DNA from: Rhabdothermincola salaria | GTDB lineage: Bacteria > Actinomycetota > Acidimicrobiia > Acidimicrobiales > Acidimicrobilacustridaceae | Assembly (NCBI RefSeq): GCF_021246445.1 | Contig: NZ_JAJQXW010000007.1 | Span: 1 to 17,057 of the forward strand | Length of the DNA stretch: 17,057 nucleotides | Reading direction: 5' to 3' | Shown: positions 3,456-6,400 of the stretch, piece after piece | How positions within the stretch are numbered: position 1 is the stretch's first letter | Layout: every line of letters begins with the position of its first letter | Translations under genes and position numbers: made by a program | The notes under the pieces: generated by a model | Told to the model about the DNA's origin: nothing | The model's database searches: none | What the model saw: the letters and a program-made list of their open reading frames with translations, nothing else

Positions 3456-6400
3456 TCAACCGGCCGATTCTTCGTTGCGGGGCAGCTCGATGACCTTGGC
3501 GTCGGGGACGTCGTCGCCGACGGCGGCCATGTCGCCCTGCCCGGCCACCATGTCGGCGTTCTCGACGCCGCTGCGGTTGGCCAGCCACTCGGCGATGTCG
3601 CCCTCGTCGTCGGGAGCCGACGAGTAGAACTCCATCGGTTCGTAGTCCGGCGCCGAGGCCTCGATGTTGCGGTAGGCGGGCATCCCCGTGCCGGCGGGGA
3701 TGAGCTTGCCGATGATGATGTTCTCCTTGAGGCCGACGAGGGAATCGCTGCGCGACTCGATGGCGGCTTCGGTGAGCACCCGGGTGGTCTCCTGGAAGGA
3801 GGCGGCCGAGAGCCAGGAGTCGGTGGACAGCGACGCCTTGGTGATGCCCATGATCTCGGGACGACCCTCGGCAGGGGTCTTGCCCTCGAGCACGAGCGCC
3901 CGGTTGACGTCGCGGTACACCTTCTGGTCGACCCGCTCGCCCGGGAGGAACTCGGAGTCGCCCGGTTCCTGCACGGCGATCTTGCGGGTCATCTGGCGCA
4001 CGATGAGCTCCACGTGCTTGTCGTGGATGGGCACGCCCTGGTCCTGGTACACCTTCTGCACCTCGCGGACGAGGTACTGCTGGGTCTCCTGGACGCCCTT
4101 GATCTCGATGAGCTCCTTGGGATCGCGGGGGCCTTCGATGATGGCATCGCCGGCCCGGATCTCCTGGCCGTCGGTGATCTCGAGTCGGGACAGCCCGGGC
4201 ACGGTGTAGGTGTCCTCGGTGCCGTCGTCGGCGACGATGGTGATGACCCGTCCCTTGCCCTCGTCGTCGGCGATGCGCACCACGCCCGACGAGCGGGCCA
4301 GGGTGGCCTTGCCCTTGGGCGTACGAGCTTCGAAGAGCTCGACGACACGGGGCAGACCACCGGCGATGTCGCCGCCGGCGGAGGCGATGCCGCCGGTGTG
4401 GAAGGTCCGCATGGTGAGCTGCGTGCCGGGCTCGCCGATGGACTGGGCGGCGATCACGCCGACCGCCTCACCCAGCTCGATGAGCTTGCCGCTGGCCAGC
4501 GACAGGCCGTAGGAAGCGGCCGAGATGCCCAGCTCGGAGTCGTCGGTCAGCGGCGAGAGCACCCGCACCCGGTTCACCTGAGGGTCGTCGCGGAGCATGA
4601 CGAGCTCCTCGTCGGCCACGACGGTGCCCCGATGCAGCGTGGTGCCGTCGGCGAGCTCGACGTCGTCGGCGAGGGTGCGGCTGAACAGACGGGTCTCGAG
4701 CCACGAGCGCTTGCCCGGACGATCGGGGACCACGTCCTCGATCCAGAGGCCACGGACGGCCGCCCCGGAGGCGAAGGGATCCTCGTCGTTGATGATGAGC
4801 TCCTGGGCCACGTCGACCAGACGCCGGGTGAGGTAGCCCGAGTCGGCGGTACGCAGGGCGGTGTCGACCAGGCCCTTGCGGGCGCCGGGCGTGGCGATGA
4901 AGTACTCCAGCATGGAGAGGCCTTCACGGAAGTTCGCCTTGATGGGCCGCGGGATCATGTCACCACGAGGGTTGGCCACCAACCCGCGCATGCCGGCGAT
5001 CTGGCGGACCTGCATCATGTTCCCGCGTGCGCCGGAGCCCACCATCATCTCGATGGGGTTGAACTTGGCTTCCTTGAGCACCGTCTCCATGGCCACCTTC
5101 ACCTCGTCGGTGGCGGTGGTCCAGATCTCGACCTCCTTCTGACGACGCTCACCATCGGTGATGATGCCCCGTCGGAACTGGGTCTCGACCTTGTCGGCTT
5201 CCTTCTCGTGCAGGTCGAGGATGTCCTGCTTGTTCGTCGGCGTCTTGACGTCGTCGATGGAGATGGTGAGGCCGGACTTGGTGGCGTAGCGGTAGCAGAG
5301 GTCCTTCATGCGGTCGAGGGCGATGGCGACCTCGGCCTTGGCGTAGTTGTGCGCCAACTCGTCGACGATGGCCCCCATGGCCTTCTTGTCGATGCGCCGG
5401 TTCTGGAAGGGGAACCCCTCCGGCAGCACGGTGTCGAAGAACACCCGGCCGGCGGTGGTGCGCACGTACTGCGGGCGGCCGTCGTCGTCGGTGCCCTCGA
5501 CGTGCTCGGGGGAGCGCAGTTCGATGAGGGCGTGCAGGGCGAGGTCGCCGGCCTCGTAGGCCCGCTCGATCTCCTCGAGGCGGCGGAAGACCCGGCCCTC
5601 GCCGGCGGCCCCCTCGACCTGCTCGGTGAGGTAGTAGGCCCCGATGATCATGTCCTGGGTGGGTGTGACCAACGAGCGGCCGTCGGCCGGCGACAAGATG
5701 TTGTTGGCGCTCAGCATGAGCACCCGGGCCTCGGCCTGGGCCTCGGCCGACAGCGGGAGGTGCACGGCCATCTGGTCGCCGTCGAAGTCGGCGTTGAAGG
5801 CGTGGCACACCAGCGGGTGGATCTGGATGGCCTTGCCCTCGACGAGGACCGGCTCGAAGGCCTGGATGCCGAGGCGGTGCAAGGTGGGGGCCCGGTTCAG
5901 CATCACCGGGTGCTCCTTGATGACCTCCTCGAGCACGTCCCACACCTGCGGGCGACGGCGCTCGACCATGCGCTTGGCCGACTTGATGTTCTGGGCCAGC
6001 TCTTCGTCGACGAGCTTCTTCATGACGAAGGGCTTGAACAGCTCGAGGGCCATCAGCTTGGGCAGGCCGCACTGGTGCAACTTGAGCGTGGGGCCGGCGA
6101 CGATGACCGAGCGCCCGGAGTAGTCGACGCGCTTGCCGAGCAGGTTCTGGCGGAACCGTCCCTGCTTGCCCTTGAGCATGTCGGACAGCGACTTGAGCGG
6201 CCGGTTGCCGGGGCCCGTGACCGGGCGACCACGACGACCGTTGTCGAACAGCGCGTCGACAGCCTCCTGGAGCATGCGCTTTTCGTTGTTCACGATGATC
6301 TCGGGGGCACCGAGGTCGAGGAGGCGCTTGAGGCGGTTGTTGCGGTTGATGACCCGGCGGTACAGGTCGTTGAGGTCCGAGGTGGCGAACCGGCCGCCGT

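Follow-up and report, generated by a model that had tools for sequence, protein, structure and literature searches.

Genomic context and features of rpoC

The window, i.e., the whole 17,057-nucleotide stretch of Rhabdothermincola salaria DNA analyzed here, carries a nusG-rplKAJL-rpoBC-rpsLG-fusA cluster on its minus strand, with rpoC at the usual place downstream of rpoB. Several other features were recorded along this stretch. On the minus strand, L10 (11944–12822) has a long acidic Ala/Pro-rich C-terminal tail, NusG (14368–15123) has a long acidic N-terminal extension, and genes for an ECF-type sigma factor and a putative anti-sigma factor, judged by eye, are located at 15464–16916 between rpmG and tRNA-Trp/secE. 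An open reading frame of 1149 codons runs antisense to rpoC on the plus strand (4014–7463); given its GC3 of 0.92–0.95, it is most likely a codon-bias shadow. The features of rpoC are as follows.

7454..3456, minus strand: rpoC (RNA polymerase beta', 1332 aa), the sole copy in the genome
7215..7271, minus strand: first zinc site (C62, C64, C77, C80), intact
5775..5795, minus strand: NADFDGD catalytic motif at aa 554, intact
4803..5028, minus strand: upstream flank of the module, near-universally conserved, likely recombination anchor; we take it to be the bridge-helix region
4485..4802, minus strand: second-zinc-site module of the cysteine-free "type A" (aa 885–990, approximately 806–905 in E. 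coli), putative exchange cassette
4773..4790, minus strand: N889-D-E-D-P893-F894, with Pro893 for the C814 ligand and Asn889 for the Arg typical of C-plus relatives
4680..4682, minus strand: Ser925 (E. coli G841 column), a co-varying site in the module
4536..4559, minus strand: L966-S-P968-L-T-D971-D-S973, with Leu for R883, Pro for V885, and Asp for C888
4512..4523, minus strand: S978-x-x-S981, with Ser for the C895 and C898 ligands
4381..4484, minus strand: downstream flank, the second conserved anchor; presumably the trigger-loop region

The preliminary description of this DNA claimed that RpoC has lost all four cysteines of the second zinc site, has Leu for the usual Arg before the SPL motif, and retains the N-terminal zinc ribbon and NADFDGD. 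All of this holds. The codons of Pro893 (CCC, 4778–4776), Leu966 (CTC, 4559–4557), Asp971 (GAC, 4544–4542), Ser978 (TCG, 4523–4521), and Ser981 (TCC, 4514–4512), read directly, are in frame, and the residues align with C814, R883, C888, C895, and C898 of the E. coli RpoC (L214, the numbering reference, on which these positions were checked) with unchanged spacing. The only cysteines of the protein are at positions 50, 62, 64, 77, 80, 462, 550, and 720, and hence the N-terminal ribbon is intact. The protein is homologous over its full length to Streptomyces beta' chains of solved structure (E = 1e-84); the aligned solved chains (three plus two inspected) all carry the second-site cysteines.

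A single rpoC was found in the window genome (97.8% complete, assembled in 7 contigs), which answers the call for a check for a second copy. The first three ligand positions are cysteine-free in 19/19 RpoCs read from the window's family, ruling out a sequencing error, as had been argued. Contigs from two sequencing runs span parts of the module, from run X1 over 4690–4899 with two differing letters and from run X2 over 4494–4749 with one; either run may be the source of the window itself, so these matches are not independent.

Distribution of the cysteine-free second site

In what follows, f, g, G, L, and P denote families, genera, genomes, loci, and proteins, respectively. Genomes were drawn by taxonomy and a subset was used, about one to three per family, with deeper sampling of f1, f75, f77, f80, f84, and f86. 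Among 127 RpoCs of Acidimicrobiales, 48 have no second-site ligand, 11 have one (in the C898 column), and 68 have all four; thus, 59/127 have zero or one ligand, and none has two or three. At the level of families, 21 are cysteine-free, 43 have four cysteines, and one is mixed. The respective protein counts in the other orders of the class (n = 61) are 17, 4, and 40, whereas 40/40 RpoCs from other classes of Actinomycetota have four cysteines. No protein with two or three second-site cysteines was observed among all 228 RpoCs, nine rows with an unresolved ligand count being four-Cys according to the alignments. Every full-length RpoC read retains the first zinc site. Mapping of the loss across Actinomycetota, suggested in the preliminary description, therefore confirms the cysteine-free second site as a trait of a lineage, found in many Acidimicrobiia and not an isolated case.

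A search for the module in 185,579 genomes yielded at least 73 loci. Those among the matches listed are mostly labeled as Acidimicrobiales, Acidimicrobiia, or unclassified actinobacteria, with a few bins labeled otherwise, and include Microthrixaceae, Iamiaceae, Ca. Aldehydirespirator, IMCC26207, and the cultured Aquihabitans daechungensis, whose strain DSM 27986 has the same motif on its chromosome (L179). All 70 readable loci among the matches listed are cysteine-free (63 without any ligand and 7 with the last one only), which is not a frequency estimate, as this set was pulled by a cysteine-free query; L184, L204, and L210 have no readable full region and are outside the 70-locus alignment. 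The genomes of cysteine-free carriers considered here are mostly of 2–6 Mb.

Among the best 150 of the 50%-cluster representatives, a sample that is biased toward the query profile and says little about the rest of Bacteria, 127 were parsed; 117 of these have four cysteines, four are cysteine-free and closest to Acidimicrobiia, and six are apparently frameshifted or have one odd motif. The 23 unparsed representatives include 18 with four cysteines, two with a cysteine-free start, and three that are unreadable.

Several unusual proteins were recorded. P0005 and P0151–P0160 form a clade of long (1441–1603 aa), fast-evolving RpoCs in which the module is of type A and the first zinc site is intact; P0005 is approximately 52% identical to the Acidimicrobiales RpoC, and the size of the contigs (up to 764 kb) suggests that this is probably a divergent bacterial lineage. 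P0039, encoded by an 18 kb Logan contig, is a beta' that has diverged strongly (45% to the nearest protein); it has a type A-derived module and changes in the otherwise invariant motifs NADFDGDT and CQQIFGP, and its first zinc site is almost intact. An insertion of about 40 residues is situated mid-module in nine genomes of the window's family (L023–L031). Finally, the bin G103 contains two full rpoC copies (L088, L089), reflecting either paralogy or contamination; both have four cysteines, so this bin offers no case of a C-plus/C-minus paralog pair, and such a pair was also rejected for the window genome, G393, G146, G182, and G225, each with one rpoC region.

Conserved replacements within the module

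In 126 cysteine-free sequences, Pro occupies the E. coli 885 column in all 126, Asp the 888 column in 124, and Ser or Thr the 895 column in 124; further, Leu is found at 883 in 121, Pro at 814 in 120, and Asn at 810 in 118. Ser973 is conserved as well (122/126 in the 890 column), and the 898 column contains Ser (89), Cys (19), Ala (14), or Gly (4). The invariant replacement of V885 by Pro (aa 968 in the window) had been overlooked in the preliminary description.

Whole-length comparison of 53 cysteine-free and 57 four-Cys Acidimicrobiales proteins revealed nine separating columns, eight of them within aa 889–978; the G841 column has Ser in 44/53 of the former and Gly in 56/57 of the latter. 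No column over the whole length of RpoC gains Cys or His in the cysteine-free proteins. Hence, no ligand has been relocated, and the compensating changes are local. This disposes of the relocated ligands that had been named as a possible objection and, together with the lack of two- and three-cysteine intermediates and the single gene copy, upholds the earlier proposal of a concerted switch to a fixed cysteine-free form.

Independent origins

A tree was built from RpoC after removal of the module, with 159 rows and 1153 columns (L022, L030, L031, L179, and L270 were too short and omitted; L154 sits on an artefactual long branch). In this tree, cysteine-free proteins occupy one subclade of Acidimicrobiales (type A) and three spots of another order. 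Type B comprises a part of f84 and all four members of f86 read, and type C is formed by f80, with genomes of about 1 Mb that presumably resemble Ca. Actinomarina. The inner modules of types B and C cluster with their own order rather than with type A, indicative of separate inventions, and these groupings suggest that the cysteine-free second site arose about three times in Acidimicrobiia.

Pro885 is common to all three types, and Asp888, Ser895, and Ser898 are common to types A and B; R883 is kept in type B, and type C has Ser in the C888 column. Residues N889, P893, F894, L966, S973, and S925 are shared by type A across 22 families and largely absent in type B. Family f84 is split between 13 cysteine-free and 12 four-Cys members (n = 25). 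In the tree of inner modules, the cysteine-free members of f84 fall together with f86 (support 0.94), while the flanks leave f84 unresolved (0.13), so that an exchange in this family is only hinted at.

Mosaic rpoC genes and probable exchange of the module

In flank trees, type A carriers surround the four-Cys lineages f55, f57, f62, f71, and most of f75, which may include regains of the metal site. The flank-only tree implies four state changes, and a single cysteine-free clade is rejected (delta lnL 282, p-AU 6.5e-41; 25 rows, 1156 columns), with much of the rejection coming from one genome, G393. The deep branches are weakly supported, and hence the direction of change, gain or regain, is not fixed.

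The patchiness extends to the genus level. Within f75, complete modules are cysteine-free in 5/5 cases in g95, where the module is the closest to that of Aquihabitans, and four-Cys in 8/8 cases in other genera, while genus g124 is mixed, with four four-Cys and two cysteine-free members (G393 and G396). Since the sister genus g299 and most of f75 have four cysteines, this state is probably ancestral in g124. The flank tree places G393 and G396 inside g124 with support 1.0, and RpoB of G393 is 93–95% like those of its congeners and 86% like that of g95. At diagnostic sites, RpoC of G393 follows its own genus at 12/12 upstream and 19/23 downstream positions, and g95 at 13/19 positions of the module, three others following its own genus; most of the g95-like sites are the motif residues themselves. 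DNA identity of G393 to its congeners drops from 85–97% to 57–73% over codons 885–984, compared with 71–85% between two four-Cys congeners over the same codons. A rare multi-residue insertion after Pro893-Phe894 is common to G393, G396, g95, f25, and f59, and when 157 inner segments are ranked by proximity to those of G393 and G396, the first 12 include no four-Cys congener.

Other comparisons are less decisive. Over codons 910–959, the identity of G393 to its congeners is about the same as to g95; the inner 63 columns give no choice between a g124 clade and a cysteine-free clade (delta lnL 1.3, p-AU 0.47 vs. 0.53); and with the four ligands removed, the module as a whole leans toward the cysteine-free clade, without significance (delta lnL 24, p-AU 0.068). 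No near-identical donor was found among seven cysteine-free genomes compared, as no 25-codon window of the module exceeds 83% DNA identity to any of them. Still, the history of the segment conflicts with that of the flanks, as judged from the flank tree and from the site pattern and identity drop in G393 and G396. As the flanks reject one clade and g124 holds both forms with a drop of identity over the module, exchange of the module by recombination is likely.

The summed depth of community contigs (80% likeness) is 10^4–10^5 on the upstream flank vs. approximately 10^2 inside the module, and on the module flanks the contigs pile up hundred- to thousand-fold above the module itself. These conserved flanks could thus serve as crossover anchors. 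None of the viral contigs searched (viral_contigs) carries the module or P0005, giving no sign of a phage vector.

An insertion of about 17 residues in the module (L014, L063, L069, L107, L065, L275, L278, L279, L280, and L289) has a patchy distribution across f14, f16, and f75 and both cysteine states, even within g95 and g124, and may be taken as a further hint of recombination in the module.

Structure and proposed mechanism

An AlphaFold model built from 135 mixed sequences has pLDDT of 86–97 over aa 893–982, although the input contained 70 four-Cys rows and the model may echo four-Cys structures; the model from 11 cysteine-free sequences alone has pLDDT below 50 at the site and is unreliable. 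Fold searches with the predicted fragment matched only beta' chains, with poor superposition (whole-fragment rmsd of about 19–23 A; for one match, rmsd about 19 A, Z 16.5, 233 residues aligned).

In other bacteria, one zinc ion links the strand following the bridge helix (C814) to the loop preceding the trigger loop (C888/C895/C898). In the window RpoC the backbone spacing of the site is kept, and judging from conservation and from the replacements listed above, the pocket is very likely zinc-free. Zinc-free LID domains of adenylate kinase serve as the analogy for Asp971, which probably occupies the place of the metal and forms hydrogen bonds with Ser978, Ser981, and backbone amides; Pro893, Pro968, Phe894, and Leu966 probably lend the knot rigidity and packing, and Asn889 and Ser973 probably cap it.

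The compensation is self-contained: it takes up about 105 residues, and the stretches on either side are among the most conserved of rpoC. Hence, the module could be exchanged as a whole by homologous recombination. The mosaics suggest that such an exchange would skip unfit intermediates with two or three cysteines. Type A probably arose once, in or near the Acidimicrobiales subclade, with types B and C arising separately in another order. A housekeeping beta' with a zinc-free second site, whose module has been exchanged by recombination, is the best joint explanation of these observations, and we consider it rather probable. The preliminary description had overlooked the spread of the trait in the class, its approximately three origins, and the genus-level patchiness that points to cassette exchange.

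Alternative explanations and possible benefit

An artefact or a dead gene, be it a sequencing error, a chimeric assembly, a pseudogene, or a spare paralog, has practically no chance of explaining the data: although the window genome is in seven contigs and most relatives are metagenome bins, this option is refuted by the single intact copy in a normal operon, by the motif of the cultured A. daechungensis strain and of the 70 loci from the matches listed, and by the occurrence of the g124 mosaic in two different genomes that have one rpoC region each. Binding of a hard ion (Mg, Ca, or Mn) or weak binding of zinc through Asp892, Asp971, Asp972, Ser978, and water seems quite unlikely. The site is indeed acidic, with Asp at 888 in both types A and B and, in the cysteine-free sequences, Asp or Glu at 889 in 121/126 and Asp at 813 in 103/126; however, the latter two acids are equally common in four-Cys proteins (66/73 and 73/73, respectively), leaving only one new acid. 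Moreover, neither Pro in the C814 column nor Ala or Gly in the C898 column (18/126) can be a ligand, and type C has Ser at 888. Repeated point mutation with strong convergence within Acidimicrobiales, with no exchange at all, is likewise improbable. Convergence between orders is real (P885, D888, S895, S898), Pro885 is already present in four-Cys members of f75 as a possible stepping stone, and the inner-module tests favor neither topology. Nevertheless, this scenario has to account for the six further residues that type A shares over its 22 families and type B mostly lacks, for the insertion common to g95 and both g124 carriers, and for the absence of intermediates among the 228 RpoCs.

The preliminary description had likened the site to C-minus ribosomal proteins and proposed zinc sparing. 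For the window's lineage this is unsupported, since in the window genome the six zinc-ribbon ribosomal proteins L28, L31, L32, L33, L36, and S14 retain their cysteines, with only S18 lacking them and a single L31 gene found. More generally, we regard a genome-wide shift to zinc-poor life as an unlikely cause, though less so than the preceding alternatives. It draws support from the other order, with cysteine-free L31 in 4/4 carriers of types B and C vs. 1/2 four-Cys genomes read, these being kin and not independent, and from inclusion bodies of RpoC upon deletion of a zinc importer, as described in a review (PMC12632275). Against it, two members of g124, the cysteine-free G393 and the four-Cys G146, both have L31 with its cysteines, the first zinc site is kept in all full-length RpoCs read, and a ZnuA-family gene is present in 5/5 genomes tested. 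In the order to which types B and C belong, the single L31 gene found is often of the cysteine-free type (L340, L341, L344–L346). The other benefit proposed earlier, resistance to oxidation, fares no better: cysteine-free RpoCs have no fewer other cysteines (mean 4.9 in 39 proteins) than four-Cys ones (mean 4.1 in 53).

Coming back to a zinc-free, exchanged module, its likely benefit would be that folding of beta' need not wait for zinc insertion. According to the same review (PMC12632275), omega, which is present in the window genome, governs zinc insertion into RpoC; this role and the inclusion bodies formed upon loss of the zinc importer make zinc-independent folding of beta' plausible as a benefit. 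One may go further and view the second-zinc-site domain as a two-state cassette with zinc-bound and zinc-free versions, the latter invented at least three times in Acidimicrobiia, which is traded between genera by crossovers at the conserved flanks coding for the bridge helix and the trigger loop, and is selected for zinc-independent assembly. Taken as a whole, this broader reading is tentative and somewhat less probable than its negation.

Relation to known systems and implications

In bacterial RNA polymerase, the second zinc site of beta' is regarded as an almost universal element of assembly, and it reportedly serves assembly of the enzyme. The site described here has the same position, spacing, and flanking motifs as the canonical E. 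coli one, but none of the four ligands is kept in the window RpoC, being replaced by conserved P/D/S/S with co-varying neighbors. C-plus and C-minus forms are reportedly known for ribosomal proteins L31, L33, L36, S14, S18, L28, and L32, where a structural Zn(Cys)4 site similarly gives way to a metal-free form (which the RpoC site probably is), with a patchy phylogenetic distribution and spread through transfer. However, C-minus ribosomal proteins are whole small genes, often Zur-regulated second copies, whereas here the change concerns 105 of the 1332 residues encoded by an essential gene that is present in a single copy inside the rpoBC operon. In the zinc-free LID of adenylate kinase and in Ros/MucR homologs, cysteine ligands are replaced by a hydrogen-bond network of Asp, Ser, and Thr within the same fold; these folds differ from that of the beta' site, and the analogy is mechanistic only.

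A full-text literature search, its scope lying outside Markov 1999, Lane and Darst 2010, and Sarkar 2013, retrieved no report of second-site loss, and the lineage-wide cysteine-free site is apparently unreported so far. Three signature indels of Acidimicrobiia in RpoC (99–139, 277–315, and 304–348) were described by Hu et al. (2018; PMC5962788), i.e., in the same protein and class but elsewhere in the sequence, and the main text of that paper contains neither "zinc" nor "cysteine." Two other sources, in the parts available, deal with the first zinc site of beta' only (bioRxiv 10.1101/2020.01.02.893370; PMC8501970).

A natural, conserved replacement of the second site provides a ready-made test of the role of zinc, in the form of a swap of about 105 residues between congeners, and a cultured carrier, A. 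daechungensis DSM 27986, is at hand. The finding is relevant to omega-assisted folding, to metal insertion, and to the question of how an essential protein gets across a fitness valley when there are no intermediates. There is also a warning for Acidimicrobiia, in which rpoC, a standard phylogenetic marker, contains a segment with a history of its own.
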